Numbered from the stretch's first letter, positions 1,045 through 19,507 are shown. The stretch is 64,000 nt of DNA from Oceanispirochaeta sp. (GCA_963666275.2 CAXXOA010000001.1:608001-672000); one strand, 5' to 3'. Numbers and translations: made by a program. The notes: generated from the letters alone by a model not told the origin.

Positions 1045-2610
1045 ATGATTACCTTCTGCCCCACAGAGATGCTTTCCATTGCCAATGAGCTCAATTACAA
1101 CTATTTCCTTTGTGATGAGACCATGATGGAATGGAGCCTCCTTTCGGTTCCCTTTCTCAGAATTCTCCAGCTGGATTCTGAAATCATGGAAAAGACCCCC
1201 CGGTTCTGGATCTCCCTGGTAGACTGGAAAGGCAGGGATCCGGAAGAGACACTGAGGAGCGGACTGGACAACGAGGGAAACTGCAGCATTACCCTTCCAT
1301 TCCGTACAGGGAACAGGGAGGAGACAAGGATTCATCTGCGGATCAGTAATCCCCTCCCTGACAATACGGGCAACACCCTACGTATGGGGTCTGCGGAAAT
1401 TGCCGGAGAGGATGTTTTCTATAAGCAGGAAGCCCTCCTTTCCCGGGATAATGAAATTGAGATCAGCGCCCGGATTCAGAAAACCCTTCTCACCGGGAGC
1501 ATTTCGGAAAATCACAGCGGATTAATCATAGAGGCCGAAACCATACCCTCCCGGGAAGTGGATGGAGACTTTTATGAATTTCTCCAGCTTACTCCGGAAA
1601 TCACGGACTTCCTTATCGGAGATGTCATGGGGAAGGGGGTTCCCGCGGCACTGCTGGGAGCGGCTGTAAAAACAGCCTATTACAAATCGGTGATTACAAA
1701 CCGGATGGGAAAAACACACCTTCCCGGTCTGGCATCCATGCTGCACAGCATCGACGGGCTCATTGGGAAGGATCTTCTGGCTCTGAAGAAATTCCTGACC
1801 CTCTATTTCTGCCGCCTGGACAGTGAAAAATCGCTTCTGAGTTTTATTGATGCCGGGCATACAAGCTTTATCTATCAGGATGCCCGTGACGGCAGCTGCT
1901 GGCATGTGAAAGGGGCCAATATGCCCCTGGGATTTTCGGAATCCCAGGACTACAGAACCTACCATCTGCCACTCAGTAAAAATGACATCCTCTTATTCTA
2001 CTCCGACGGGATTCCCGAAGTCGCCAACAGCGAGGGGGATATTTTCGGCTATGAGCGGATCAGGCAGTTTGTCCTGGCCCACAGGCATCTGGAACCGGCA
2101 GAGCTGCTGAAGAGCCTTTTCAATGTGGCCTTTTATTTCGCTTCCCAGGCCTTTGCGGATGATGTGACCGGTGTTGTGATCAAGGTGGACCATGAAAAGG
2201 CATCTCCCCCCGTAGAAAAACAGTTTCATTTTGACAGGGAGAACCCGGCGGAAATGAGATCTCTGCGGGAATCCTTTGAATCGGATCTGAAAGATCTTTA
2301 TCCCGAAGAGTTCAGCGATGATTTCATAAGACTGACTTTTGCTCTTATGGAAGCCTGCGGAAACTGCATTGTTCACAGCAGGGGCGAGTTCTCTCTGGTC
2401 TGGAGGATGTTCAGGAACAGTGTGGAAATCAATCTGGACTTTTCGGGATCCGACTATAACTGGACCGCCCAGTCCGAACCTTCTGCGGAGAGCTATAGAT
2501 CCAACGGATACGGCAGCTACCTGATTCAACAGGGGACGGATTCTCTCCTTCTTATGAAAGGGGGCGGGGCATCAAAAAGGCTTCAGCTCTATAAGGAATT
2601 TTGTCAATGA
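1045..2610 (+). CDS. SpoIIE/RsbU-type PP2C phosphatase fused to a C-terminal RsbW-like HATPase
   Basis: PP2C motifs GDFY, GDVMGKGVPAAL, DAGH, YSDG and DDVT; C-terminal EACGNCIVH and GYGSYLI. Confidence 0.85.
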   Translation: MITFCPTEMLSIANELNYNYFLCDETMMEWSLLSVPFLRILQLDSEIMEKTPRFWISLVDWKGRDPEETLRSGLDNEGNCSITLPFRTGNREETRIHLRISNPLPDNTGNTLRMGSAEIAGEDVFYKQEALLSRDNEIEISARIQKTLLTGSISENHSGLIIEAETIPSREVDGDFYEFLQLTPEITDFLIGDVMGKGVPAALLGAAVKTAYYKSVITNRMGKTHLPGLASMLHSIDGLIGKDLLALKKFLTLYFCRLDSEKSLLSFIDAGHTSFIYQDARDGSCWHVKGANMPLGFSESQDYRTYHLPLSKNDILLFYSDGIPEVANSEGDIFGYERIRQFVLAHRHLEPAELLKSLFNVAFYFASQAFADDVTGVVIKVDHEKASPPVEKQFHFDRENPAEMRSLRESFESDLKDLYPEEFSDDFIRLTFALMEACGNCIVHSRGEFSLVWRMFRNSVEINLDFSGSDYNWTAQSEPSAESYRSNGYGSYLIQQGTDSLLLMKGGGASKRLQLYKEFCQ

Positions 2611-4274
2611 ACAAAGCAGACAGCCCTGTCCTTCTGGCAGATTCGGTCTACTGGCTCGGTTCTACCAATGCCTCGGATTTTCTTCAGATTAATGTCTATC
2701 TTGTCTTCCGCAACGGAAAAGCCCTGCTCATTGACCCGGGCCCGAAAGATATCTTTCCCCAGATACGCAGAGCCCTGGAAAGCCTTCTGCCTCTGGAGGA
2801 GCTGTCGGGGATTGTCCTTTCCAACCAGAATCCCGATGTCTGTTCCAGTATCTCCCTCTGGGAGGAGAGCGGTTTCAGGGGGAATATCCTGGCTCACTGG
2901 AAAAACGGGGTATTTATCAATGCCTATGGTCTGAAAAACTCCGTTACCTCCATAAAAGAGGTTCAGGCCGGAATCGGGAATCTGCCAGAACATATCCGGT
3001 TCTATCCCTTTTCTCTGGGGCATGATGCCTTTCTGGCAACCTTTGACGAATCCACGGGAACCCTCTTTTCATCTGTTTTTTTCGGGGCCTTCGGACGCTC
3101 GCAAAATCTTTTTGCCCAGCCGGCGTATGCCAACCGGATGATTTACTATCACAGGAATTTCATGCCTTCAGGCCGGGAGATCCTTCCTGTCCTGTCTCAG
3201 ATCGAAGCCCTGACTCCCCGGCTGATCTGTCCCCATCATGGAGAGATCATCGAATACGGCAGTGGGGATCTCTGTTTACAGCTGAGAAATGCCGTTGAAG
3301 ATCCTTCTGCCGGAGACGGCCAGACCGGGGGAGAGGATGACAGGGAATGGGATCTTGAAAAATTCGAACTCAACGAGGAGCTTGTTCTCAGCAGTGATGA
3401 GAAGCTCGTGGATCCTGTAACGGGTCTTTACAACTCCAGTTTCTATTTCGGGTACCTTCCCGGATTTATCGAGGCCAATCCCGGAGGGACAATAGGGTAC
3501 CTCAGGATTGATAAAATGATGGCTTTCAATCAGGCCTTCGGGTTTCAGGAGGGAGATCGCATCATAGCGACTTTTGCCACAATCCTCCAGGATAACAAAC
3601 CGGATGAGGCCTTCCTTTTCAGGGATTCCGGGCCCATGCTTATACTGATGCTTCCCGATTCGTGTACATCCAATCACCTGGATATCATCGAATCCCTGCA
3701 GAACAGCGTCAGGGATTCAGATGCCTTTATTCAGGATATGACCTGCAGTGCCGCTGTTGTTTCCGTGGAGGAGGCCCGGGAAAAAGAGGGGGAGGCCGCA
3801 GAAAATGTTCTTGCTCTGATCCGGGAGAGACTGGGGATTCTGGGCTCCCAGGGAACCCATTCCATGTGCAATTATTCCAAGTCTGCCGAGGAGCTGGTAC
3901 AGAAAACAAAGATTCTGATCATAGACCCCGGTAATATATACACCCACCTCCTGGTGGAGTATCTGACCTTCCGCGGAATGGATGCTGAAATATGCCGAAA
4001 CGGAACAGACGCCCTGAGGCAGATTGATCTTCTGCATCCCGATCTTATTATATGTGAAACCCAGGTACCCCAGATGGATGGATTCAGAATCCGGGAGCAG
4101 CTCCTTCGTTCCTGGGATTTAAGGAATATCCCCTTTGTTTTCATCTCCCATCTTAAAACGGTAGAGTCTGTCAAAAGGGCTCAGGATCTGGGGGTTTTCC
4201 ATAATCTGAAAAAGCCTGTGATGCTTTCCGAAGTGGAAGGTCTGATCCTGCACCTGCTGGGGAGCCGAGAGTAG
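2607..4274 (+). CDS. MBL-fold (ODP-like)-GGDEF-like-receiver fusion with all three domains degenerate
   Basis: MBL fold: LIDPG, SNQNPDV, ICPHHG. GGDEF-like: DPVTGLYN, GFQEGD, RDSGPML. REC: PDLIICETQVPQMDG, KKP. ATGA overlap with the upstream stop. Confidence 0.75.
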   Translation: MNKADSPVLLADSVYWLGSTNASDFLQINVYLVFRNGKALLIDPGPKDIFPQIRRALESLLPLEELSGIVLSNQNPDVCSSISLWEESGFRGNILAHWKNGVFINAYGLKNSVTSIKEVQAGIGNLPEHIRFYPFSLGHDAFLATFDESTGTLFSSVFFGAFGRSQNLFAQPAYANRMIYYHRNFMPSGREILPVLSQIEALTPRLICPHHGEIIEYGSGDLCLQLRNAVEDPSAGDGQTGGEDDREWDLEKFELNEELVLSSDEKLVDPVTGLYNSSFYFGYLPGFIEANPGGTIGYLRIDKMMAFNQAFGFQEGDRIIATFATILQDNKPDEAFLFRDSGPMLILMLPDSCTSNHLDIIESLQNSVRDSDAFIQDMTCSAAVVSVEEAREKEGEAAENVLALIRERLGILGSQGTHSMCNYSKSAEELVQKTKILIIDPGNIYTHLLVEYLTFRGMDAEICRNGTDALRQIDLLHPDLIICETQVPQMDGFRIREQLLRSWDLRNIPFVFISHLKTVESVKRAQDLGVFHNLKKPVMLSEVEGLILHLLGSRE

Positions 4275-4275
4275 G

Positions 4276-7119
4276 ATGAGTATAGACTGGATTGTCATTA
4301 TCTTCCTTATTATTGTCCTTTCAGGGGCCAATATCGCTGTTCTGACCGCGACAATTCTCACAAAGAAGAATTCTGTCAGCAGATTCAGAAGCCGGGAACG
4401 ATTGCGATCCATAGTGAACCGGTCGGTAATCAGGAATTCTCTGGGGAGTACGGAGGCTCTTTCAGAACAGGATAAAATTCCCTTTTTTCTGGAGTGGCAT
4501 GAAGTCAGCAGCCACCTCGAAATCTCCGGCGTTCTCAGAGAGGAACTGGAAACCCTGGCCATTGAGTGGAACCTTCCCCCGGTGATCGAAGATCTCCTGA
4601 AAAGCCGTTTTTTCAATAAAAGAGTGACTGCCATGAATGTGCTGGCTTTTCTTCCTGAAAAAGAGAAACTGGCAGCATTGCGTGAGGCTTCCCTCCGGGA
4701 GACATCGGTTATTCTGAGGCTGAGAATCACTCAGATGCTCTGCAGTGAAGGTTCCCTTGATGCTGTGGACTATATCATTCACAGTCTTCAGGGACGTCAG
4801 GAATTTTATAAAAAAAAGGTTCTGGGGATTCTGGAGGACAATGTCACTCTGATGATCGACTGGGCTGATGTGAACAGAGAAAAAGAGGAGCGCGATGCCC
4901 TGAGGATCCTGATCCGGGCGGCGGGGACGAATCTCAGGGAGTGGCACTATGATTTTCTTGTTGCCCAGTCCAGAAATCCCGACAGACTGATCGCCCGGGA
5001 GGCTGCGGGAGTTCTGATGAACCGGTTTTCAGACAGAAATACCCTGGATTTCCTTATGGCATCTGAAGAGGGGAGCCTGAGGCAGAAGGCTGTATACCGC
5101 TTTACAAGGGATATGGCACTCCCTACGGAAGGGGAACTTCTTGAACTTTTCCGGACAAAAGAGCTCTACTCCTATGCTGTCTCGGGGCTGATTGAAAAAG
5201 TTCACAGTGATCCCCGTCTGATATCGGAACTTTTCCGCCGGTATCAGGTCGCCGAGACCCTGGAGGAGAAACAGGGGTATGCGGCGGTGCTGGCAAGCAG
5301 AGTCCAGTATTTTATCCGTCGCTTGAAGAGTGATGAGAGCGCGGAAGTCCGGGAACTTCTCTCGGATATGGTCGGTCAGGGCATGGGTGCTCCCATCATC
5401 AACTTCCTCAATGCCAATAAGAGTCCTACCCTTGAAACGCTCCTTCTGGAGACCATCCAGCCACTGACTCTGGAAAATCCCGAGTTTCTGGAACTCTGTC
5501 AGTACTATCTGGGAAACCGGCTGAAGAGAAAACTGGAACTTCCTCAACGGGTTGAAGAAGAGGGCACTCCCAAAATACAGCTGACCCGGAAAGACCGCCT
5601 TATTATGGTGACACTGGCTCTTTCCACTCTGCTGCTGCCCCTGGCAATCTACGCTGCGGCCTACGGCAGAATCTTTCCCTTTATGCTGGCCAGAGAACGG
5701 GTTGTATCGTTCCTCCTGCTTTACCATTTCGAGTTTGCCTTTTATTCCATTGCGATCAACTCAATCTCGCTGATCCTTATGTTCCTCTCCTGGACTGTCA
5801 TAAGAGAACAGAGGACCTCCTGGAAGGCTGTGGACAAGAAATTCCTCTTTTCCCGGGGGATTCTTCCTTCTGTGACCATCCTGGCTCCCGCCTATAATGA
5901 AGAAAAAAGCATCGTTCAGAATATCTACTCCCTCCTGTCTCTGGAGTACCCGGACCTTGAACTTATTGTGATCAATGACGGTTCAAAGGACAGAACTTTC
6001 CAGAACCTGGTGGACAACTTTGATCTGGAACTGGTGGACTATCCCATTCCCGATTACATTCCCACCGCTCCCATTCTGGGGCTCTATCGAAATGAACATA
6101 TTCCCAACCTTCTGGTGATAGACAAGAAAAACGGGGGAAAGGCCGACTCTCTGAATACAGGGCTGAATGCCGCCCGGGGGGAGTATGTGTGCAGCATCGA
6201 TGCGGACAGTCTTCTGGAACCCGAAGCCCTGACGAAGATGATGTTTGAAACCATCAACAGCGAAAAACAGACCATTGCCGTAGGAGGGAATATCATTCCT
6301 GTGAACGGCTGTATTGTACAGAACGGCGGAATCCGGGAAATCCATCTCTCCCATAACAAATACTCCCGGTACCAGACCATTGAATACCTCCGTTCCTTTA
6401 TTGCCGGTCGTCTGGGCTGGTCCAAACTGAACAGTCTCATGATAATATCCGGAGCATTCGGAGCATTCCTGAAGCAGGATCTTCTGGATATCGGGGGATA
6501 TATGACAGGAACTGGCAGTATGAAGAAAGATACTGTCGGTGAGGATATGGAGCTTGTGGTCAGGCTTATCCGGCATCATTACGAAAAGGGCGAGCCCTTT
6601 TCGGTGGGATACTCCCACAATGCCAACTGCTGGACCGAAGTCCCTGAAAACCTGCCGGATCTTCTCAAGCAGCGGGGGCGCTGGCACAGGGGACTCATCG
6701 AGATACTGCTTTATCACAGAAAAATGCTCTTCAACAGAAAATTCAAGGTTGTGGGTTTTCTGGCGTTTCCCTATTTTTTCCTTTTTGAACTTCTGGGGCC
6801 CTTCTGGGAGTTCCTGGGATACTTTGTTCTTATGGCATCCCTCTTTCTGGGGCTGCTGAACGGCACAATATTCCTTTTTATGTTTTCCATTATTGTCCTT
6901 CTGGGCAGTCTGGTTTCCTCTACGGCCCTTCTGCTGGCCGAGAGCGATGTGCTCTACTTTAAAGGGAAGGAATTCCGCCAGAGCATTCTTACCGCTCTCA
7001 GGGAAAATTTCGGCTACCGCCAGATGATCAGCATGCACAGGGTTTTCTCCTATGTGCTTTTTCTGTTCCGGGACAGGGGATGGCAGAAACTCTCCCGTAA
7101 GGGGTTCTCCAATGAGTAA
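4276..7119 (+). CDS. HEAT-repeat domain fused to a processive GT2 polysaccharide synthase
   Basis: Motifs APAYNEE, NDGSKD, GGKADSLN, IDAD, GED and QRGRW; flanking TM helices; helical N-terminal region of about 430 aa. Confidence 0.85.
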   Translation: MSIDWIVIIFLIIVLSGANIAVLTATILTKKNSVSRFRSRERLRSIVNRSVIRNSLGSTEALSEQDKIPFFLEWHEVSSHLEISGVLREELETLAIEWNLPPVIEDLLKSRFFNKRVTAMNVLAFLPEKEKLAALREASLRETSVILRLRITQMLCSEGSLDAVDYIIHSLQGRQEFYKKKVLGILEDNVTLMIDWADVNREKEERDALRILIRAAGTNLREWHYDFLVAQSRNPDRLIAREAAGVLMNRFSDRNTLDFLMASEEGSLRQKAVYRFTRDMALPTEGELLELFRTKELYSYAVSGLIEKVHSDPRLISELFRRYQVAETLEEKQGYAAVLASRVQYFIRRLKSDESAEVRELLSDMVGQGMGAPIINFLNANKSPTLETLLLETIQPLTLENPEFLELCQYYLGNRLKRKLELPQRVEEEGTPKIQLTRKDRLIMVTLALSTLLLPLAIYAAAYGRIFPFMLARERVVSFLLLYHFEFAFYSIAINSISLILMFLSWTVIREQRTSWKAVDKKFLFSRGILPSVTILAPAYNEEKSIVQNIYSLLSLEYPDLELIVINDGSKDRTFQNLVDNFDLELVDYPIPDYIPTAPILGLYRNEHIPNLLVIDKKNGGKADSLNTGLNAARGEYVCSIDADSLLEPEALTKMMFETINSEKQTIAVGGNIIPVNGCIVQNGGIREIHLSHNKYSRYQTIEYLRSFIAGRLGWSKLNSLMIISGAFGAFLKQDLLDIGGYMTGTGSMKKDTVGEDMELVVRLIRHHYEKGEPFSVGYSHNANCWTEVPENLPDLLKQRGRWHRGLIEILLYHRKMLFNRKFKVVGFLAFPYFFLFELLGPFWEFLGYFVLMASLFLGLLNGTIFLFMFSIIVLLGSLVSSTALLLAESDVLYFKGKEFRQSILTALRENFGYRQMISMHRVFSYVLFLFRDRGWQKLSRKGFSNE

Positions 7120-10036
7120 AAAGCGTACACTCCTGCTTTCAGTCCCCGCCTTTCTTCTCTTTCTCCTTCTGGCCTTCCCTTTTGCCTACTGGCAGTTCTC
7201 CCCAGAGAGCGGTCTGGATATCCTTGTCTGGGAAAAGGAGGCTTACTCCGGCAGAAAAACTCACCCTCTGGAGTGGCTTTTCCTGTACAGGAAAGACCAT
7301 GTAACAGGAAATCGGACGATCCGGGAAGGAGATCCCAATATGATCCTGTTTTCGGGGGATTTCAGTTTCTCGTCCATCAATGAAGCCATAGAAGAGGCGG
7401 ATAGGATGAAACGGGCCGCCCTGGAGAGTGTCTATGCCTTCTGGGACGGTTCTGTGGCCGATGAGGCAGCAAGTCCCGCTCTGCGGAGCCGGATTGAGCA
7501 GTTTCTGCAGGTGGATTTTTCAGGCTGGACTCTGAAATATGATACGGATGAGGGGCCCTCTCTTGTTTTTATCTCTCTGACCGGAGAACGAGTGACCCTT
7601 CAGGGGGGGACGCATTTTAACGGTTTTGCTCCTTCCGTGTTCTGGGAAGGAAACGAGGTCTCCGTTAAAACCTACCTTCCCGTCTACCGTACCACAGAGA
7701 GCACCTCTTCTGAAGTCTCGGTGGATCTGCATCTGACAGAAGCGGGAGAGGACCTTCTCAGATCCCGGGGAATTCCCACGGAAATTCCCCTGATTATGGA
7801 GCACAGGAGCCCTCTGGGAAAAGCCGGATTCTCGGCGATCAGTTTTTCACTGCTCGAAGGGCTGCCCGGATCCCACCGGGTGGCGGGGCGGCTCTTCTAT
7901 AAGGCCGAACTGGCTCTGTTCAGCAATAACCTTTCCGAACTCTACTGGAGGATTTTCCTTCCCTGGCTGGATAGTAGGTCCCGTTCCCTCGGGGAGGATA
8001 GAGGATCTCCGCATCTTCGGGAAGAACCGGTCCGCTTTGTTCTGGATCAGGCAGGGTTCAGGAAAGTGGATCCGAAGGGAGGGGACAGCTCCTTCTATCT
8101 TCAGGGGGTCAATCTGGGGCCGGCTGTTCCGGGCCGCTGGTTTACCCAGTTTCCCGAGGATGAACACCTCTATTACAGATGGTTTACACAGATGAAGGAG
8201 ATGAATCTGAATACTGTGAGGATTTACACTCTGCTGCCTCCCTCCTTTTACAGAGCCTTTGAGCTGTTCAATCAAAACCATCAGGAGGACCCCCTCTATC
8301 TGATACAGGAAATCTGGCCCGAAGAGCATCCTCCCGGAGAGAACTATCTGGACTCCGCCTATGATGCGGCCTACCGGGAGGAGATCCGTCTGAATGTAGA
8401 CGCCCTTCACGGAAGGGCACAGGTAGCCCCCAGAACAGGACGGGCCTGGGGAGAGTATACGGCGGATATATCGCCCTGGCTTCTGGCCTGGCTTGTGGGA
8501 AGGGAACTGGAACCCGATGAGGTTCTGACTACCAACGCCCTCAACCCCGATTCCATATACCGGGGCAAATGGCTTTCCGCTCCCGAAGGACCGGCTACCG
8601 AAGCCTGGCTGGCCTCTGCCTGCGATCTTACCGTTGCCTATGAAAGGGAGAACTACGGGAGTTCCCGGCCCGTGGGGATTGTGAGCTGGCCTATTCTGGA
8701 TAGGCTCTCCCATCCGGTGGAGTGGATCGATCCCGCTCTGGAGGGACGGTCTCCCGCCAATGATAAAGCAGTGGTGGACATTGAAAGGATCCTTGTGGAG
8801 GATGCCTCTTTCGGAGGTTTTTTCGGAGGGTATCATATCTATCCCAACTACCCGGATTTTATGAACAACCAGTCCAGCTACGCTTCCTACACCGATCAGG
8901 AGGGAACCTTCCGCTACGGCGGCTATCTGCAGGAGTTTATGGCTTCCCATACAAAATATCCCGCCATCATAGCCGAATACGGGATTTCCACCAGTGCCGC
9001 TACGGCGCATCTGAATCCCGACGGCTATCATCACGGCGGTCTGACAGAAGAGATTCAGGGGCAGGGGATTATCCGGATGGACCAGGCGGCCCGGCGGGAA
9101 GGGTTCAGCGGAACCCTCATTTTTGAATGGATCGATGAATGGGCCAAGAAAACCTGGACCACTGAACCCTTTATGATTCCCTATGACAGGCAGGCCCTGT
9201 GGCAGAATGCTCTGGATCCGGAGCAGAATTACGGAATCATGGCTATGGAGGGAATCTCCCGGAGGGGAGAGAACAGCTCTCTTGATACGGAGGGAAAGAC
9301 TCTTATGACTGCCTGGGGATCCGAGTCCCATCTCTATCTGGAAATTCCCGATTCCCCTTTCACAGAAGGGGCAGGGAAGATACTGATAGGCCTGGACAGC
9401 TATAATCCCATGGAAGGGCTGCGGCAGTTTCCGGGTATTCCCGAACCAGCGGTTCCCACAGGCATAGAGAGCCTTGTAGAGCTCAGCCTGAAAGAAGATT
9501 CCGCCCGGATACTGAACATAAGCAGTTACAGCATTGCGGAAAAATCCTTTCGTTCCCGCTCCGGTGATGACCAGGAGTTCGTACCTCTGACCTATCTTGT
9601 GAACAGGGGCTATGTGACAGAAAAGGGTGAGACCGTGCCGCCGGGATATACTGACTGGAGCCGGCTCCACCGGGGAGCTTTTCCGCAGAACTACTACTCT
9701 GTATTCAGACAGGAGAAAGGAATTACCATCAGGATCCCCTGGACACTGCTGAATGTGTCCGATCCCTCTTCCGCCATGGTTCTGGATGATCCCGGACCCA
9801 TCGGCAGGATTCCCGAGCGGGACGGAATCAGAACCGCCCGGAGCCGGGAAATACTCATCTACTCCCTGGCCCTTTCGGATGAGGGTTCACTTCTGGGGAC
9901 CATTCCCGCCGGATTTGCCGAAACAGGAGACGCCCTCTCCTTTGTCTGGGAGCCCTGGGATGTTCCTGTTTACAGGCAGAGAGAGAAGGATTCTGTGGCA
10001 CTACTGGGAGAATACTTTTCCCGGGTTTCTCCTTAA
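7112..10036 (+). CDS. Membrane-anchored protein with a clan-A (GH2/GH5-like) TIM-barrel glycoside hydrolase domain
   Basis: N-terminal TM helix; GVNLG, NTVRIYT, GRELEP, IAEYG and FEWIDEW; start overlaps the GT2 stop. Confidence 0.65.
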   Translation: MSKKRTLLLSVPAFLLFLLLAFPFAYWQFSPESGLDILVWEKEAYSGRKTHPLEWLFLYRKDHVTGNRTIREGDPNMILFSGDFSFSSINEAIEEADRMKRAALESVYAFWDGSVADEAASPALRSRIEQFLQVDFSGWTLKYDTDEGPSLVFISLTGERVTLQGGTHFNGFAPSVFWEGNEVSVKTYLPVYRTTESTSSEVSVDLHLTEAGEDLLRSRGIPTEIPLIMEHRSPLGKAGFSAISFSLLEGLPGSHRVAGRLFYKAELALFSNNLSELYWRIFLPWLDSRSRSLGEDRGSPHLREEPVRFVLDQAGFRKVDPKGGDSSFYLQGVNLGPAVPGRWFTQFPEDEHLYYRWFTQMKEMNLNTVRIYTLLPPSFYRAFELFNQNHQEDPLYLIQEIWPEEHPPGENYLDSAYDAAYREEIRLNVDALHGRAQVAPRTGRAWGEYTADISPWLLAWLVGRELEPDEVLTTNALNPDSIYRGKWLSAPEGPATEAWLASACDLTVAYERENYGSSRPVGIVSWPILDRLSHPVEWIDPALEGRSPANDKAVVDIERILVEDASFGGFFGGYHIYPNYPDFMNNQSSYASYTDQEGTFRYGGYLQEFMASHTKYPAIIAEYGISTSAATAHLNPDGYHHGGLTEEIQGQGIIRMDQAARREGFSGTLIFEWIDEWAKKTWTTEPFMIPYDRQALWQNALDPEQNYGIMAMEGISRRGENSSLDTEGKTLMTAWGSESHLYLEIPDSPFTEGAGKILIGLDSYNPMEGLRQFPGIPEPAVPTGIESLVELSLKEDSARILNISSYSIAEKSFRSRSGDDQEFVPLTYLVNRGYVTEKGETVPPGYTDWSRLHRGAFPQNYYSVFRQEKGITIRIPWTLLNVSDPSSAMVLDDPGPIGRIPERDGIRTARSREILIYSLALSDEGSLLGTIPAGFAETGDALSFVWEPWDVPVYRQREKDSVALLGEYFSRVSP

Positions 10037-10154: not shown

Positions 10155-10183
10155 TTGTTGGATGAAATTTATGGGTGTATAAT
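10155..10183 (+). promoter_or_regulatory. sigma70-type promoter for the regulator/kinase pair
   Basis: TTGTTG-N17-TATAAT upstream of ATG 10218. Confidence 0.4.
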
Positions 10184-10217
10184 TGCCCACCAAATTTTTC
10201 AGCAAGGTGTCCAGAAT

Positions 10218-11546
10218 ATGAACACTTCCATATTGATTATCGATGATAATGAACAGTTTTGTCTCAGCCTGTCCCGCATGCTGGCGGACCGGGACCATAC
10301 TCTTTCCTATGTAATGAACAGTCTGGATGCCCTGGAATTCCTCTCCCGGAATGTGGTGGATATCATTCTCCTGGATGTGCGTCTGGGATCTGAATCGGGG
10401 GTGGAAGTCCTGATACAGATCCGTGAGCTCTATCCTGCTGTGACCATTATCATGCTCAGCGGCTACGCTTCCATTGAGACAGCCGTCCGTTCCATAAAAC
10501 TGGGTGCCTTTGATTATATCCAGAAGCCTGTGAAATACGAAAAGCTGATTAAACTCATTCAGAATGCCAGGACCCTGGCGTCTCTGAAGGAGGAAAATGA
10601 GGGGCTTCAGAAAAGCCTTCAGGATGTGATTCCCCCTATTATCAGTAAAGATCCCCGGATCCGGGAACTGAAAGGAACCATTCAGAAACTCTCCGAGTCC
10701 AGTCTGCCCATTCTTCTTCTGGGAGAAAATGGTACGGGCAAGGAGGTTTTTGCAGATTACATCTACTCCCGGAGCCATCGGAAGGCGAAAAAGTTTATAA
10801 AGATAAATTGTGCTGCCTTTCCCGACAGCCTGCTGGACAATGAGCTTTTCGGCCATGAAAAAGGGGCCTACACAGGGGCGGATACCCTGTATAAAGGGGT
10901 CTTTGAGAGAGCCCAGGGGGGCACCCTCTTTCTGGATGAAATCGGGGATATGTCTCTGGAGGTTCAGGCTAAAGTCCTGAGGGTTCTCCAGAACAGAGAA
11001 CTCTACCGTCTCGGCGGCAAAGATGTCATTCGTATCGATGTCCGTATTATCTCGGCTACAAACAAGAAGCTTGAAGACAGGATTAGTGAAGGCCGGTTCC
11101 GGGAGGATCTGTACTATCGTCTCAATGCGGCCATCCTTTCCATTCCCCCTCTCAGAGAGCGGAAAGAGGATATTCCTCTTCTGTCTGATACTTTTCTCAG
11201 GGAATATGCTTCCATCAACAGCCGCCCCCTGTGCTCCCTGGATCCGGAGGTCGAGAATCTTCTGAAGCACTATCACTGGCCGGGGAATATCAGGGAACTG
11301 AAAAATGTCCTCCACTATGCCGCCGCCGTGGCCTCGGGAAACTCTATTCAAAAAGAGAATCTGCCCCTGCAGATTTTTGAAAAATCCCGGGAGGAAACTG
11401 TCTCCAATCCTCTGGATGATTCGGAAAAAGCCGTGATTCTCAGGGAGCTTAAAGAGCATCATTTCAACAAGAAGAAAGTTGCCGACAGACTCAGCATAAG
11501 CCGGACAACTCTTTACAGCAAAATGAGAAAATATGGAATCGGATAG
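10218..11546 (+). CDS. NtrC-family sigma54-dependent response regulator (REC-AAA+-Fis HTH)
   Basis: IIDD and LLDV in REC; GENGTGKE, GAYTGA, LFLDEIG, FREDLYYRL and WPGNIREL; C-terminal HTH. Confidence 0.95.
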   Translation: MNTSILIIDDNEQFCLSLSRMLADRDHTLSYVMNSLDALEFLSRNVVDIILLDVRLGSESGVEVLIQIRELYPAVTIIMLSGYASIETAVRSIKLGAFDYIQKPVKYEKLIKLIQNARTLASLKEENEGLQKSLQDVIPPIISKDPRIRELKGTIQKLSESSLPILLLGENGTGKEVFADYIYSRSHRKAKKFIKINCAAFPDSLLDNELFGHEKGAYTGADTLYKGVFERAQGGTLFLDEIGDMSLEVQAKVLRVLQNRELYRLGGKDVIRIDVRIISATNKKLEDRISEGRFREDLYYRLNAAILSIPPLRERKEDIPLLSDTFLREYASINSRPLCSLDPEVENLLKHYHWPGNIRELKNVLHYAAAVASGNSIQKENLPLQIFEKSREETVSNPLDDSEKAVILRELKEHHFNKKKVADRLSISRTTLYSKMRKYGIG

Positions 11547-13383
11547 AAAGAAAAACAGACCCATCATGACCCTTAAGAATGTATCGATCCGCTATGGATC
11601 CATCCGGGCTCTGGATCATATCAATCTGAAAATTTCAGGAGGAGAGATCCACGCCATTGTGGGAGAGCATGGTGCCGGCAAATCCACCCTTGCCAAAATC
11701 GTAGCCAATCTGATTGTTCCCGATTCGGGCAGGATCCTCTACGAAAATTCCTCCTATGAAAAACTGAATTACAAAGAGACGATCCATTCGGGAGTCCGGA
11801 TGGTTTTTCAGAAGATCCAGCTGAATCAGAGCCTCACTGTGGCGGAGAATCTTTTTATTGCCAATAAGGACTCCTTTCAGTCCCGGGGCGGTCTTTTCAA
11901 TCCCAAAAGAGTGGAACGGAAAGCCGAGGAGTTCCTCAGGGAGAATCATTTTCCCCTGAAGTCCCATGATCTTGTGGCCAATCTGGAGCTCTCGGACCGG
12001 GCTCTTCTGAGTATCGTCAAAAATCTCTTTAATCCTCCCAAGATTCTGATCCTCGACGAAGCCCTCGAGAAACTCTCTGCCGAGGGGCTGGAAAGGATTA
12101 TCCGGGCTCTTAAGGAGCTCAGCGGCAAGGGCTCGGCTGTTCTATTTATAACCCACAGAATCGATGACCTCTATATGATAGCCGATCGGGTCAGTGTCGT
12201 GCGCAAAGGGGAAATCCTGATCTCCGATAAAATTGGAGAACTGGACAAAATCAGTCTTATCAAGATGGCCTATACACAGTTTTCCAATCTTGAAAAACAC
12301 TCCTCCCAGGCGGAGGAGTTCAACAAGCTTATGAAGTACAACGAAGTGGTCCTTTCGGATCTTCCCATCAGTCTTCTCATCACGAACTATGATAACAAAC
12401 TCCGTATGATGAATCAGAGTGCCCGCAGGCTCTTTTCCATAGACAGCAGCCGGGACGTGGGAGGAATCACCCTGGAAGATCTTTTCAGAAGCAATGAAAG
12501 GATTCTCAGCTTTGTGGAAGAGGCGATCCTGTTGGGAGAGAGTTCGTCCCGCTATAACGTTCCCCTGATTCTGGACAGCCGGCATTATATGGTGAATATC
12601 GTGATTTATCCCATTTACGACAGCCTGGAATGGATAGGGAATATGTTCATTCTGGAAGATATAACAGAACGGGAGCAGCTGAGGGATCAGCTTGTGCTTT
12701 CGGATAAACTGGCCTCTCTGGGGCTTCTTGCCGCGGGGGTGGGGCATGAAATCAATAATCCTCTGGGGGTTATTTCCAACTATCTGGAAGCCTTCAGGCA
12801 GAACAAAATCGCCCAGGAGGAAAAGGTTTCCGTACTGGAATACCTATTTGAACAGATCAATTACATCAGTCAGGTTGTGGGAAATCTGATCTCTTTTTCT
12901 GAAAATCAGAAGCAGGATACGGTCTCGCTGAACCTGAATGCGGCTATCCGGAATATTGTTGAACTTATCCGCTTCAACGGCTCGAAAAACAGGATTTCCA
13001 TCCAGTTCGAGCCGGCCCGGGACGAACAGATCTTTACCGAGATCAATCCGGGGGAGTTCAAACAGGTCATACTGAATCTCTTCAGAAATGCTTTTGAAGT
13101 CCTCCAGGAGGGAGGGAATATTCAAATCCGTTTATCCCTGGAAGAGGACGAGGGGAACCGGCGGATACGCCTGGATTTTCAGGATGACGGACCGGGAATT
13201 CCCTTTGACGATCCGTCGGATGTTTTTCTGCCCTTCAAATCATCCAAACAGACAGGAAAGAATTTCGGGCTGGGGCTCTCTCTCTGCTATAACATTCTGA
13301 AACGCTACGGCGGAGAAATTTCAGTCATTTCAGAAAAAAATTCCGGCTGCTGTTTCAGGATCTATCTGATTCCGGTTCTGTAA
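11533..13383 (+). CDS. Soluble sensor histidine kinase: sugar-ABC ATPase domain-PAS-HisKA-HATPase
   Basis: NBD motifs GEHGAGKS, VFQ, ILILDE and ITH, followed in one frame by HEINNPL, NLFRNA, DDGPGI and GLGL. No TM segment. Confidence 0.85.
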   Translation: MESDRKKNRPIMTLKNVSIRYGSIRALDHINLKISGGEIHAIVGEHGAGKSTLAKIVANLIVPDSGRILYENSSYEKLNYKETIHSGVRMVFQKIQLNQSLTVAENLFIANKDSFQSRGGLFNPKRVERKAEEFLRENHFPLKSHDLVANLELSDRALLSIVKNLFNPPKILILDEALEKLSAEGLERIIRALKELSGKGSAVLFITHRIDDLYMIADRVSVVRKGEILISDKIGELDKISLIKMAYTQFSNLEKHSSQAEEFNKLMKYNEVVLSDLPISLLITNYDNKLRMMNQSARRLFSIDSSRDVGGITLEDLFRSNERILSFVEEAILLGESSSRYNVPLILDSRHYMVNIVIYPIYDSLEWIGNMFILEDITEREQLRDQLVLSDKLASLGLLAAGVGHEINNPLGVISNYLEAFRQNKIAQEEKVSVLEYLFEQINYISQVVGNLISFSENQKQDTVSLNLNAAIRNIVELIRFNGSKNRISIQFEPARDEQIFTEINPGEFKQVILNLFRNAFEVLQEGGNIQIRLSLEEDEGNRRIRLDFQDDGPGIPFDDPSDVFLPFKSSKQTGKNFGLGLSLCYNILKRYGGEISVISEKNSGCCFRIYLIPVL

Positions 13384-13384
13384 A

Positions 13385-13455
13385 CTGTTCATCATCTGAA
13401 CAGAATGCTGAACATACTGTTCATGTTCTGACAGAGTGTTCAGTCTTCTGTTTAC
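13385..13455. promoter_or_regulatory. Candidate enhancer (UAS) array for the NtrC-type activator
   Basis: Perfect CTGTTCA-N5-TGAACAG (13385-13403) plus further TGAACA/TGTTCA half-sites, 100-170 bp upstream of the -24 box. Confidence 0.6.
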
Positions 13456-13554: not shown

Positions 13555-13570
13555 TGGCCCGGCCTTTGCA
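13555..13570 (+). promoter_or_regulatory. sigma54 -24/-12 promoter
   Basis: TGGCCCGGCCTTTGCA matches TGGCAC-N5-TTGCW with exact GG/GC spacing. Confidence 0.8.
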
Positions 13571-13615: not shown

Positions 13616-14566
13616 ATGAAAAAATTTTTAACCCTTATGATTTGTTTACTCGTATTGATGCCTGCTTTTATTACGGCAGGAGGAGCACAGGAGCCGGAAG
13701 ATGACAAACCCGTCGTGGGTCTTATCATGAAATCTCTGGCCAATGAGTTTTTCATGGCCATGGAAGAGGGCGCCAAAGCCTATGCCGAACAGGACGGAAC
13801 ATTTAAACTTGTGACAATGGGAATGAATTCTGAAACCGACTTTGATTCCCAGGTCAATGCTGTTGACAGCCTTATCGCCCAGGGTGTGGACCTGATTGTT
13901 CTGGCTCCGGCCGATTCGGCCGGTATGGTTGCTCCTGTAAAAAGAGCTATCGATGCGGGTGTGACTGTCATCAATTTTGATGTAACTCTGGATAAAGATG
14001 CTCTAAAAGCGGCCGGCCTTCCTGAAGAATTCCTTTTTGTAGGACCCGACAATACAGACGGTGCCGAAATGGTGGGAAACTACCTGGGTGAGACTCTGGG
14101 CGACGGAGGCAAGGTTTTCATCATTGAAGGCAACCCCGGAGCTGATAATGCCAAACAGAGGAAAAACGGTTTTCTGAAAGCTGTGGAAACCCATAATCTG
14201 GAGCTCCTGGCTTCCAATACCGCTCACTGGGAAACAGAAGAAGCCAACACTCTCATGACCAACCTTCTGACAAAATATCCTGATGTGCAGGGTGTTATGT
14301 GCGCCAACGACTCCATGGCTCTTGGTGTTGTCCGGGCACTGGAAGCCGCCGGCCGGGAAGATGTACAGGTTGTCGGTTTTGACAATATCCCTGCTGTAAA
14401 AGATCTCATCATGAATGACAAAATGCTGGCTACTGTTCATATGGACGGAGCTGAAATGGCTATTCTTGCCTTCAATGCCGGATTTGAAATCATTGATGGA
14501 AAACGGGAAAACCTCGGCTGGGTACAGTCTCCGCTTGTACTGGCCAATAAAGATTTCTTCAAATAA
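13616..14566 (+). CDS. Sugar ABC transporter substrate-binding protein (RbsB-like)
   Basis: Signal peptide; KSLANEFF, GPDN and CANDSMALG; AGGAG RBS. Confidence 0.92.
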   Translation: MKKFLTLMICLLVLMPAFITAGGAQEPEDDKPVVGLIMKSLANEFFMAMEEGAKAYAEQDGTFKLVTMGMNSETDFDSQVNAVDSLIAQGVDLIVLAPADSAGMVAPVKRAIDAGVTVINFDVTLDKDALKAAGLPEEFLFVGPDNTDGAEMVGNYLGETLGDGGKVFIIEGNPGADNAKQRKNGFLKAVETHNLELLASNTAHWETEEANTLMTNLLTKYPDVQGVMCANDSMALGVVRALEAAGREDVQVVGFDNIPAVKDLIMNDKMLATVHMDGAEMAILAFNAGFEIIDGKRENLGWVQSPLVLANKDFFK

Positions 14567-14633: not shown

Positions 14634-16139
14634 ATGAACGTGGAAAATATAATCGAACTGAAGGATATCTCTTTGAGTTTTCCCGGGGTCAAAGCTCTGG
14701 ATTCTGTCAATCTGAGTGTGCAGAAAGGGGAAATCCATATCCTTCTGGGTGAAAACGGTGCAGGTAAATCGTCCCTTGTGAAAACAATCTGCGGTGTCTA
14801 TACCCAGAACAGCGGAGACATGGTTTTTGACGGAAAGCCCTACATGCCTCAGAACCCTTTAGCTGCCATTAAAAAGGGAATTCGTGTGGTCTATCAGGAA
14901 TTCAATATTCTCTCCTATCTTTCAATCGCAGAGAATATCTTTTTTGAAAAACTGCCTGTGAAAAATGGTCTGGTTGACTATAAAAAGCTTAACAGGGATG
15001 CCCGGCTTATTATGGATAAAGTCGGATTGACTCAGATCTCCCCCAGAACCCCTGTTGAAAATCTGGGAGTTGCCCAGATGCAGCTGGTTGAAATTGCCAA
15101 AGCCCTGTCGGGAGACAGCCGTATCCTGATTCTGGATGAACCTACTGCCACTTTAATGCCCGATGAAATTGACACCCTCTTCGCTCTGCTGAAAAAGCTG
15201 CGGGACGAAGGAGTTTCCATCATATACATTTCCCATAGACTGAATGAGATCTTCCGGATAGGAGATCGTGTCACTGTTCTCAGGAACGGCAGTCTGGTGG
15301 GAACTCACCCGGCTTCGGAGCTTGATATTCCCGCTATTGTGAAAATGATGGTCGGCAGGAGCATGGAAAAGGAGTATCCCTTTGACGAAACTGTCACACC
15401 GGGAGAACCGCTGCTGGAAGTGAAAAATCTCATATTCAAGGGGAATCCCGCCGCCAGATCCTTTACCCTGCGGAAGGGAGAAATCCTGGGAATCGCCGGG
15501 CTGGTCGGATCGGGCAGAACAGAAACCATGAGGGCCCTTTTCGGGGCCGATTTAAAAGTGGCCGGTGAGGTCATTCTCAACGGTAAGAGCCTGGATATCC
15601 GTTCCCCCCGGGATGCGGTGAAAGAGGGAATCTGTCTCCTCACTGAGGACAGGAAGCAGCAGGGCCTGATCCTGGATATGAATTGTGTTGAAAATACAAC
15701 CATTACGGACCTGAAGGCTGTCTCGGTCAAGGGGTTTCTGAACAGGAATGCCGAAAGAGCCGCCACGGAAAAACAGATCCGTGAAATGAATATAAAAACA
15801 CCGGGGATAGAACAGAAAACACTCTATCTTTCCGGTGGAAATCAGCAGAAAATCCTGATTGGAAAATGGCTCTACAGGGATTCGGAAGTTTTTATTTTTG
15901 ATGAACCCACCCGGGGAATCGATGTGGGGGCCAAGTATGAAATCTACCTCCTTCTCTGGAAACTCGCATCCATGGGGCGGGGCATTATTATGGTTTCCTC
16001 TGACCTTCCCGAACTGATGGGGGTCTGCCACAGGATCGCCGTCTTTTCGGATGGAAAAATTACAGGTGAGCTTGACCGCAGTGAGTTTGATGCGGAATCA
16101 ATTCTGACCCTGTCCTACAAGGAGTATCTGCATGCATAA
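14634..16139 (+). CDS. Sugar ABC transporter ATPase (RbsA-like, two NBDs)
   Basis: [16 protein letters not shown] and [12 protein letters not shown]. Confidence 0.95.
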   Translation: MNVENIIELKDISLSFPGVKALDSVNLSVQKGEIHILLGENGAGKSSLVKTICGVYTQNSGDMVFDGKPYMPQNPLAAIKKGIRVVYQEFNILSYLSIAENIFFEKLPVKNGLVDYKKLNRDARLIMDKVGLTQISPRTPVENLGVAQMQLVEIAKALSGDSRILILDEPTATLMPDEIDTLFALLKKLRDEGVSIIYISHRLNEIFRIGDRVTVLRNGSLVGTHPASELDIPAIVKMMVGRSMEKEYPFDETVTPGEPLLEVKNLIFKGNPAARSFTLRKGEILGIAGLVGSGRTETMRALFGADLKVAGEVILNGKSLDIRSPRDAVKEGICLLTEDRKQQGLILDMNCVENTTITDLKAVSVKGFLNRNAERAATEKQIREMNIKTPGIEQKTLYLSGGNQQKILIGKWLYRDSEVFIFDEPTRGIDVGAKYEIYLLLWKLASMGRGIIMVSSDLPELMGVCHRIAVFSDGKITGELDRSEFDAESILTLSYKEYLHA

Positions 16140-16172: not shown

Positions 16173-17162
16173 ATGAGCGAGAAAACTGGAGTCAAATCCA
16201 TTGTCAATATTTTTCTGAAAGAGGTGGGCATCGGGGTGGTGCTGCTGGTACTGGTGGTTGCATTCAGTCTGGGAGCCCCCCGGTTCTTTTCCATTATCAA
16301 CGTAGCCAATATCTTTACCCAGATAAGCATTAATACTGTTATTGCTGTGGGAATGACTTTTGTCATCCTCCTGGGGGGGATCGATCTGTCGGTAGGGTCT
16401 GTTCTGGCCCTGTGTTCCATCATTGCCGGTAAGATCCTTGTCAATCCCAACCTGTCCCTGGGAATGGCTATTCTGCTTTCCGTGCTTGTCAGTATCCTTT
16501 CAGGTATGCTGATCGGGCTGATAAACGGCTACATTTCAGAAACATGGAAAATCCATTCCTTTATTGTGACTCTGGGTATGCTGAATATCGCCAGAGGGCT
16601 TGCCCTTCAGATCAGTCAGTCCCGGACCATTTTCAATTTTCCCAAAGCCTTCAACGACTTCGGGACAACCACCTATTTCCGGGTCCTTCCAGCCATTTTT
16701 CTTATTGCTCTGATCCTTGTGATAATGGGAAGCGTCATACTGCGAAGAACAGTGTTCGGCAGGATGATCTTTGCCATTGGAAACAACGAGGAATCGGTAC
16801 GGCTGTCGGGTCATAATGTGAAATTCTACAAAGTTCTGGCCTACACAATCTGCGGGGGAACCGTAGGAATCGCCACGATTATGTATATGCTCAGGATGAG
16901 CATCGCCAGTCCTATTCTGGGAGTGGGATTCGAACTCAATGCCATTGCAGCTGTTGTTATCGGCGGTACCAGCATGAGCGGCGGTAAAGGGTCTCTGATC
17001 GGAACATTCTTGGGAGCCTCTATCATGGGAGTTCTCAATAACGGTCTGCTTCTCATCGGTATGGGCGACTTCGCCCGGCAGATTGTTACGGGTATGATCA
17101 TCATTCTGGCTGTTATTCTGGATACCTACAGAACCAGATTTTCCGCCATTCTGAATGAATAG
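16173..17162 (+). CDS. Sugar ABC transporter permease (RbsC-like)
   Basis: GGIDLSVG and AAVVIGGTS; multiple TM helices. Confidence 0.95.
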   Translation: MSEKTGVKSIVNIFLKEVGIGVVLLVLVVAFSLGAPRFFSIINVANIFTQISINTVIAVGMTFVILLGGIDLSVGSVLALCSIIAGKILVNPNLSLGMAILLSVLVSILSGMLIGLINGYISETWKIHSFIVTLGMLNIARGLALQISQSRTIFNFPKAFNDFGTTTYFRVLPAIFLIALILVIMGSVILRRTVFGRMIFAIGNNEESVRLSGHNVKFYKVLAYTICGGTVGIATIMYMLRMSIASPILGVGFELNAIAAVVIGGTSMSGGKGSLIGTFLGASIMGVLNNGLLLIGMGDFARQIVTGMIIILAVILDTYRTRFSAILNE

Positions 17163-18808: not shown

Positions 18809-19087
18809 CTATTTCAAAATATCTGCCGTTGCAGTCTCTCCTGCAAGCCGTCCGATAACAAAAGCTTCAGTGAGTCCCTGGTCCATCTGATTGGCAGTCT
18901 CTCCGCCGATATAGAGCCCTTCGATGGCAGAGCCGTCCTCTCTCAGAGCCCGGGCTTTCAGATCGATCATAACGCCCCCTCTGGTCTGCTGGCTGGCAGG
19001 GGAGATCTTGGCACCGTAGTAGGCGGGAGTATCAATCCTGCTGAACATGGAGGCCTTTCTGCCGTACTCGGAATCCACACCTGCATC
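18809..19087 (-). repeat. 279-bp copy of the 3' end of the flavoprotein gene (61534-61812)
   Basis: Ungapped alignment with about 29 mismatches by hand count (about 90% identity), mostly at third codon positions. Confidence 0.95.
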
Positions 19088-19489
19088 GTAGTTATCAGAT
19101 CCAACATAGATAAAGTCTCCTGCTTCAGGATTTAACCTTGAATTTACTGCAACTATGGGGATTCCTGCATCGTTACACATCTTGACCGCAGGCATGCTGC
19201 CTGTCCAGTCAATCGGATTTAGAATCACACCATCAACACCCAGTGAGATGAAAGTTTCAACAGCCGCCAACTGTTTTTCAATATCCTTCATAGGATCAAT
19301 GACTTTAACTTCCCATCCTTTGGCCTCAGCGGCTTTGAGGACTTCCTCTTTCATCAGATGCTGAAAAACATCCTGGTCACTGTGAAAGGTGTATCCGATT
19401 ACGATTTTTCCATCATCTTTCTGCCCATTGGCAAAAACACCATTGATGCCCATCAAAACAACCAACAAAACAAATAATGCTTTCTTCAT
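18809..19489 (-). pseudogene. Chimeric ORF: N-terminal half of a sugar-binding protein fused in frame to the flavoprotein C-terminus
   Basis: ...IYVGSDNY-DAG-VDSEYGRKASMFSRIDTP...; the last 92 aa match the end of 61534..62997. Confidence 0.9.
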
Positions 19490-19507
19490 AAAAATCACCC
19501 TGTTTTA

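Follow-up and report, generated by a model that had tools for sequence, protein, structure and literature searches.

A histidine kinase family with an input domain of CUT2 sugar-transporter descent, encoded beside CUT2 transporters in Spirochaetota and KSB3

We examined a 64,000-nucleotide stretch of DNA from Oceanispirochaeta sp. (GCA_963666275.2 CAXXOA010000001.1:608001-672000, hereafter the window), in which one gene joins the nucleotide-binding domain (NBD) of an ATP-binding cassette (ABC) transporter to a histidine kinase. This NBD-kinase fusion is a real, conserved family of Spirochaetota and KSB3, and it is tied almost exclusively to CUT2 transporters. Sequence comparison traces its NBD to the N-terminal half of RbsA-type (CUT2) sugar ATPases. 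As read from its sequence elements, the window locus is a complete circuit of sigma-54 activator, promoter, candidate enhancer and CUT2 transporter, in which the kinase may sense sugar by contact with the transporter itself.

Architecture of the kinase and extent of the family

The 616-aa kinase is encoded by one stop-free frame on the + strand (11533..13383). A Pfam scan assigns ABC_tran to residues 27-178 (E 2.8e-24), HisKA to 396-458 and HATPase_c to 508-612; PAS and PAS_4 matches at residues 272-382 are weak (E 2e-4 and 6e-4, slightly below their cut-offs). Over those same residues an AlphaFold2 model has a PAS-like order of strands and helices (pLDDT 77-88). The model, built on a 43-row alignment, has a mean pLDDT of 78.9 and a pTM of 0.42 and consists of three well-folded units connected by low-confidence helices, so the relative placement of the units is undefined in it. 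Its top Foldseek matches are PAS/LOV kinases and ABC NBDs. No membrane helix was found in the kinase, and with a maximum 19-residue hydropathy of only 1.22 the protein is taken to be soluble. Open frame, Pfam domains and hydropathy therefore agree with the single NBD, PAS, HisKA and HATPase frame without a transmembrane helix that a preliminary description of this DNA had proposed, the PAS assignment being the weak part.

The input domain (residues 11-247, 11563..12273) resembles NBD1 of CUT2 ATPases and contains GEHGAGKS, Q93, the signature LELSD, ILILDE-ALEKL and H208, with a conserved DKISLIKMAYTQ helix at its end. It is followed by a conserved linker helix (KYNE...LP) and the PAS-like domain (residues 248-378, 12274..12666), as delimited by Pfam, AlphaFold2 and the family alignment, and then by the kinase core (12667..13380), which carries H405 within HEINNPL and the N, G1 and G2 boxes; all three segments lie on the + strand. 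HisKA and HATPase_c score above the Pfam cut-offs and H405 is kept in 120/120 full-length kinases; by domain and motif content, the protein is a class I (HisKA) histidine kinase.

Among 7997 scored candidates, the best 120 share 39-92% identity with the kinase over 95-100% of its length, and all of them contain ABC_tran, HisKA and HATPase_c. Because these 120 listed homologues are full-length with the same three Pfam domains, a misjoin or frameshift artefact is ruled out as the origin of the fusion, and so is the possibility that homologues occur only as separate genes. Those with names include Spirochaetales, Oceanispirochaeta crateris, KSB3, Vecturithrix and Moduliflexus, all names being automatic only. 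Matches at E 1e-60 occur in 23/38 genomes of the taxonomic family and in at least 13/401 genomes of the phylum, the latter a lower bound with three candidates scored per genome. In the phylum of a KSB3-titled record (L013), 7/9 genomes match, with two to six copies each, and the ESM Atlas holds a 62-member cluster with the same domain make-up. Searching 50% representatives with a profile gave mostly matches of 490-530 aa in two stretches, as expected for CUT2 ATPases, and yields no family size. A related-locus search with the whole kinase alignment gave only 5/80 loci with family members, the rest holding generic kinases. Three loci (L024, L040, L066) are fusions in appearance only, their genes being separate.

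Descent and remodelling of the input domain

The best NCBIfam matches of the N-terminal domain are the CUT2 sugar ATPases YtfR, AraG, AlsA, XylG and RbsA, in their first half only. A quick tree was built from 89 NBD rows picked by hand, with 34 of the 65 kinases available at that stage; in it the kinase NBDs fall inside the CUT2 N-terminal halves (SH-aLRT 93). NCBIfam, profile search and tree agree on CUT2 descent. The kinase NBDs form two strongly supported groups, mostly of the GEHG and GEHR Walker A types; constraining them to a single clade is compatible with the data (p-AU 0.8) but is no proof of a single origin. No kinase NBD in the tree is sister to its own neighbouring ATPase, and repeated local duplication from that ATPase is unsupported.

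The pattern of retained and altered residues is consistent across the family. K50, Q93 and D175 are invariant in the 120 full-length kinases, E176 occurs in 111/120 and H208 in 96/120; class I members of the family keep E176 in 91/94 and H208 in 88/94, whereas class II members keep H208 in only 8/26. Q93 is itself a mark of NBD1, NBD2 carrying Glu at this position. The Walker A position 46 is His in 113/120 kinases, against Asn in all 58 NBD1 rows, and the Pro that follows Walker B in 100% of the 58 NBD1 rows is found in 0/120 kinases (P177). The signature is degenerate, for example LELSD for LSGGQ. Every motif named in the preliminary description (GEHGAGKS, the Q-loop with Q93, ILILDE, the H-loop THR with H208, and HEINNPL) is present, as is the D-loop change it pointed out, ALEKL against PTATL in the neighbouring ATPase, but it had omitted the Asn-to-His exchange in Walker A and the degenerate signature. 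Two fused NBDs, an intact LSGG in NBD2, DEPT and a GxN Walker A, which belong to a CUT2 transport ATPase, are all absent from the kinase.

Published work on MalK and RbsA places the altered residues in context. In MalK, bonds run from the D-loop to S38 in Walker A and to the H-loop of the partner (PMC6906923), and kinase H46 aligns with MalK S38 by motif position, so the changed residues would sit at the NBD-NBD contact. With the ATP-binding residues invariant and the D-loop, H46 and signature altered, we infer that ATP binding is retained while the NBD-NBD face has been rewritten. RbsA has one working and one degenerate ATP site (PMC11466899); a dimer of the kinase NBD would hold two degenerate sites. 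The C-terminal part of the NBD is conserved like the DHp domain (0.59 versus 0.60), and the PAS domain (0.41) and the helical subdomain of the NBD (0.40) are the lowest parts of the kinase. Some members are degenerate: the kinase of locus L139 has DAS and TSR, and that of L110 lies on a long branch.

Linkage to CUT2 transporters

Downstream of the kinase on the + strand, Pfam and NCBIfam identify a sugar-binding protein (13616..14566; Peripla_BP_4, best NCBIfam matches AlsB and RbsB, both below cut-off), a two-NBD CUT2 ATPase of RbsA type (14634..16139; GENGAGKS in NBD1, LSGGNQQ in NBD2) and a CUT2 permease of RbsC type (16173..17162; BPD_transp_2). The operon already holds a complete two-NBD ATPase, as had been noted before. 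There is a single permease gene, so the permease is presumably a homodimer; a sequence search found no solved relative of it.

We annotated 144 loci with 134 distinct kinases: five from the related-locus search, 60 of the 62 matches in genomes of the taxonomic family and phylum (two contig-edge fragments were omitted) and 79 further loci. A CUT2 permease lies within 7 kb in 61/62 loci with full flanks and an intact or fragmented CUT2 ATPase gene in 60/62; 49/72 short-flank loci show a transporter gene. The KSB3-phylum set, 23 of 27 matches and possibly overlapping with the 134, has a CUT2 permease within about 8 kb in 21/23 and a sigma-54 regulator in 23/23. The controls behave differently. 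None of the 66 other kinases of the Oceanispirochaeta sp. genome is within 7 kb of a CUT2 permease, versus 9% of 1805 long frames, and among its 17 sigma-54 activators the three kinase partners alone are near one (0/14 for the others). In a looser control, a CUT2 permease was present at 2/75 non-family loci from the related-locus search. Related loci are not independent, and diversity is gauged by the 22 transporter clusters into which 77 complete loci fall; the neighbouring importer is CUT2 in every one. Up to six kinase paralogues occur per genome, beside different transporters.

The genome of the window (G000) has three paralogues of the kinase. It holds about 39 CUT2 ATPase genes and 45 CUT2 permeases, with the NBD kinase at just three loci. 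The third paralogue has an odd Walker A, GDRGSGKT, and the ATPase beside it (G000:C2:42400-43671, - strand) breaks off after about 398 aa and is accompanied by a separate piece of 116 aa, a frameshift or sequencing error. At three other loci (L141:5689-8770, L192 and L193), family kinases stand beside transporters with a single 265-aa NBD and no two-NBD ATPase. Two regulator-kinase pairs of the family lie near each other at L238 and L253 (G445:C8), L172 and L214; at L238/L253, one transporter is flanked by a class I pair and a class II pair. Two of the closest non-family kinases from the related-locus search (L018:452-7990, L020:8081-17646) have, ahead of the PAS-kinase core, a long extension at the N terminus in which membrane and HAMP segments were recognised by eye; sigma-54 regulators and CUT2 genes stand alongside, and this design may be the ancestral form that the NBD replaced.

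A probable sigma-54 output to the transporter operon

Directly upstream of the kinase lies the gene of an NtrC-type response regulator (10218..11546, + strand) with REC, sigma-54 AAA+ and Fis-type helix-turn-helix (HTH) domains in Pfam. Its longest frame begins at 10155, the likely start is the ATG at 10218, and its stop overlaps the kinase start by 14 bases. A sigma-54 activator holds this position in 119/120 assessable loci. Ahead of the first transporter gene, a motif scan detects a -24/-12 element, TGGCCCGGCCTTTGC (13555..13569, + strand), which is not significant on the window alone. Across the family, a scan with the -24/-12 consensus and at most two mismatches places such an element before the first transporter gene in 82/101 loci in sense orientation, against 2 in antisense and a mean of 4.7 (maximum 10) in shuffles.

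About 170 bases before this promoter is a perfect palindrome, TGTTCA-N5-TGAACA (13386..13402), with weaker copies after it, which we regard as a candidate enhancer. The pattern TGT-N11-ACA occurs upstream of 50/82 family promoters, compared with a mean of 4.5 (maximum 10) in shuffles and 5-19 for other spacings. A further TGT-N11-ACA palindrome, with one mismatch to the window enhancer, spans the regulator start codon (10208..10224). Similar sites are present in 5 of 9 orthologues examined (of 12), the window included, making it a possible self-repression site of the regulator. A scan for sigma-70 promoters and terminators gave promoter-like sites no more often than chance. The genome contains rpoN; together with the REC-AAA+-HTH partner, the -24/-12 promoter and the upstream enhancer, this is the equipment of an NtrBC-like sigma-54 two-component system. 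Since the promoter and enhancer sites are conserved, the kinase-regulator system very likely induces the transporter operon.

Possible explanations for what the input domain reads

There are several possible explanations for the presence of a transporter NBD in this kinase. The one that we favour, and to which we give an even chance of being correct, is a two-component system that senses via its own transporter, a kinase dimer docking on the permease dimer in the place of RbsA and reading its sugar loading. Its pair of NBDs would match the pair of coupling loops on the permease dimer, and a share of the permease dimers would carry the kinase dimer instead of RbsA. Engagement of the permease by the sugar-loaded binding protein would press the two kinase NBDs together around bound ATP; without an intact signature they would hydrolyse poorly, and no pumping would follow. 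The movement would reach H405 by way of two helices, MAYTQ and KYNE, and the PAS domain, and the phosphorylated regulator would induce the transporter operon. The binding protein would supply sugar specificity, letting one kinase family serve many sugar transporters. Contact with the transporter is argued because the importer is always of the NBD's own CUT2 type across lineages, and because paralogues serve different transporters with no sugar-binding domain identified in the kinase.

An exceptional locus (L098:8950-13556, G408:C2) bears on where such contact would be made. Its binding protein, permease and kinase are intact, and it lacks the ATPase, the sigma-54 promoter and the AAA+ domain of the regulator, which is reduced to REC and HTH; about 50-70 bases separate the regulator and permease starts. 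Orthologous loci (L099, L100, L103) carry the full gene set, and a DNA search of that genome, which is 98% complete, gave no full-length match to the orthologous ATPase gene. With L171 as outgroup, the permease and binding protein have evolved about 2-3 times faster than their orthologues (28/10, 32/16, 31/12; 23/8, 30/8, 23/12; p 0.0004-0.06), and the kinase is not accelerated (p >0.3). These rates fit a permease freed from pumping yet kept for the kinase. The preliminary description had set docking on the permease and pairing with RbsA side by side as equals; this one ATPase-less case favours the permease. It is a plausible if tentative idea that a non-pumping receptor of binding protein, permease and kinase coexists with the pumping complex, and that the L098 lineage discarded the pump motor and left the receptor alone.

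Within the family, kinase-NBD distances follow permease distances at 0.28, slightly above the 0.18-0.22 of PAS, core and regulator. The kinase NBD is slightly like its cognate NBD1 (z 2.1, p 0.03). Positions that face the permease are partly kept among the 120 kinases (G59 in 106, G87 in 104, N106 in 111 and a basic residue at 163 in 103).

A number of observations weigh against docking on the permease. Linkage is also expected of any regulator gene sitting beside its target. The partial correlation between NBD and permease is not significant (r 0.18, median p 0.10), the likeness to cognate NBD1 is not concentrated at the positions that would face the permease by comparison with MalK (p 0.14), and none of the permease columns tells cognate transporters from the rest (family-wise p 0.1). 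Position 55 is basic in 48/120 kinases versus 93% Lys in NBD1, and the window kinase itself has N59 where the Gly of NBD1 is invariant. The rates at L098 also fit slow decay or the use of another ATPase; that genome holds 34 other CUT2 ATPase matches, the coupling loop of the L098 permease has one Gly-to-Ala change, and the locus is a single case in which the sigma-54 domain and promoter were lost as well. Finally, two loci of the KSB3 phylum, L246 and L250, lack CUT2 genes within 9 kb. The earlier proposal of transport-coupled signalling is thus borne out as regards a conserved family, CUT2 linkage and a sigma-54 output, while on the proposed contact with the permease or RbsA three co-evolution tests came out weak or null.

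An unlikely though serious alternative is a free cytoplasmic sensor, its NBD dimer binding ATP/ADP or another nucleotide, its PAS domain or remodelled site binding the imported sugar or its phosphate, and the transporter being only the target. The missing membrane anchor is in keeping with such a sensor, as is the low conservation of the PAS domain and helical subdomain, expected if ligands differ. So are the loci without an adjacent transporter: L246, L250 and L139, the last with the catabolic genes araBDA alongside, no transporter nearby and an orthologous permease at another site of its genome (75% identity). What a free sensor leaves unexplained is why the importer is always CUT2, the type from which the NBD came, over 22 transporter clusters. 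An energy signal, moreover, is not sugar-specific, yet up to six paralogues per genome stand beside different transporters.

It is distinctly improbable that the kinase NBD instead swaps with NBD1 of RbsA and pairs with NBD2, whose LSGGN would complete a working ATP site and let the kinase read turnover, that is, flux. What the kinase retains is precisely the NBD1 share of the working site, with E176 and H208 in class I, which would suit the one-working-site arrangement of RbsA (PMC11466899). Of three column-wise tests for marks of cognate transporters, the one on NBD2 gave a weak difference (family-wise p 0.04, with 0.95 for NBD1). Against such pairing, the partner-contacting D-loop and Walker A position are rewritten, H208 is mostly lost in class II, kinase-NBD distances do not track those of NBD1 or NBD2 (-0.01, 0.05), and L098 keeps an unaccelerated kinase NBD although its transport ATPase is gone. 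That the NBD is a mere tether or dimerising relic, with the PAS domain taking its signal from another protein, is very hard to credit: the degenerate members would suit it, but K50, Q93 and D175 are invariant, the C-terminal part of the NBD is as conserved as DHp, and inspection of loci, though not a systematic search, brought up no further conserved gene.

Other features of the window and related loci

Elsewhere in the window, a cluster on the + strand (2601-10036) encodes a protein with the look of lactamase-fold, GGDEF and REC domains and a HEAT-repeat glycosyltransferase-like protein, both by eye, together with a 994-aa protein without a Pfam match; it is possibly an exopolysaccharide system. 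On the - strand, a 229-aa sugar-binding protein frame (18809-19498) has a C-terminal third that looks flavoprotein-tail-like by eye, probably through a deletion fusion or an assembly join. At L110, 2 kb from the NBD kinase, a 613-aa protein (L110:3876-5717, - strand) fuses a very degenerate ABC NBD to a SpoIIE phosphatase; it has no full-length relative among the 120 matches listed.

Comparison with known systems and implications

The closest functional parallels are systems in which a transporter controls its own regulator. As proposed here, in BceAB-BceS/BceR a kinase reads an ABC transporter and the regulator induces the transporter genes (PMC10314905, PMC6978683). BceS, however, is a membrane kinase without an ABC domain that meets BceB via membrane helices, and its transporter gives antibiotic resistance (PMC10314905), whereas the kinase described here is soluble with no transmembrane helix, has its own NBD, accompanies a sugar importer with a binding protein rather than a BceAB-type resistance transporter, and signals to a sigma-54 activator. 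In PstSCAB-PhoU-PhoR, too, the state of an ABC importer controls a kinase, but a separate adaptor, PhoU, and a membrane kinase are needed (PMC6978683); here the kinase itself contains the transporter domain. MalFGK2-MalT is a sugar ABC importer that controls its own operon by state-dependent contact at the level of the NBD (PMC6906923), a contact which we infer in our case. MalK, however, partners directly with the activator, which the resting transporter sequesters; there is no kinase and no extra NBD, and the importer is CUT1, not CUT2 (PMC6906923).

In construction, the nearest relatives are kinases that have captured a transporter part as their input: the SLC5/STAC kinases CbrA, CrbS and RpuS, and the 5TMR-kinases, with the fold of an ECF S-component (PMC11109136). 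These capture a membrane domain, whereas the present kinase captures a soluble motor domain; neither SLC5 nor STAC appears in its Pfam scan, and it has no transmembrane helix. The N-terminal NBD of RbsA, AraG, XylG and YtfR is the source of the input domain and has in common with it the Gln of the Q-loop, the Walker A Lys and the degenerate signature. Compared with these ATPases the kinase has one NBD, His for Asn in Walker A and EAL for EPT, with the PAS and kinase parts joined where the linker of RbsA to NBD2 begins. By analogy, the kinase would thus work like Bce, Pst-PhoU-PhoR and MalK-MalT and be built like CbrA and the 5TMR-kinases, while falling outside each family tested. ABC_tran and HisKA also share one chain in ESM Atlas clusters of 826-852 aa, commonest in Actinomycetota; these proteins are longer, the larger cluster has GAF instead of PAS, and at a score of 0.83 they are a lead only. 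LmvK (PMC10128022) was considered as a relative and rejected, being a membrane kinase.

The available parts of PMC1183210 and PMC1262709 do not mention this fusion, and no description of the family was found in the literature searched, which took in few subscription papers and no supplements. The NBD-kinase family is apparently undescribed, in line with the earlier remark that no characterised fusion of this kind was known.

The transporter co-sensors known so far rely on a separate membrane kinase, on an adaptor or on the fusion of a membrane domain. With a soluble motor domain as the input, one kinase scaffold could therefore read any sugar via the binding protein of its transporter. The five genes, promoter and enhancer all lie inside 7 kb, which makes this reading easily testable by construct. 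If it is true, these kinases would represent a new class of kinase input, would make the conformational cycle of CUT2 transporters readable by genetic means and could serve as a modular sugar biosensor.

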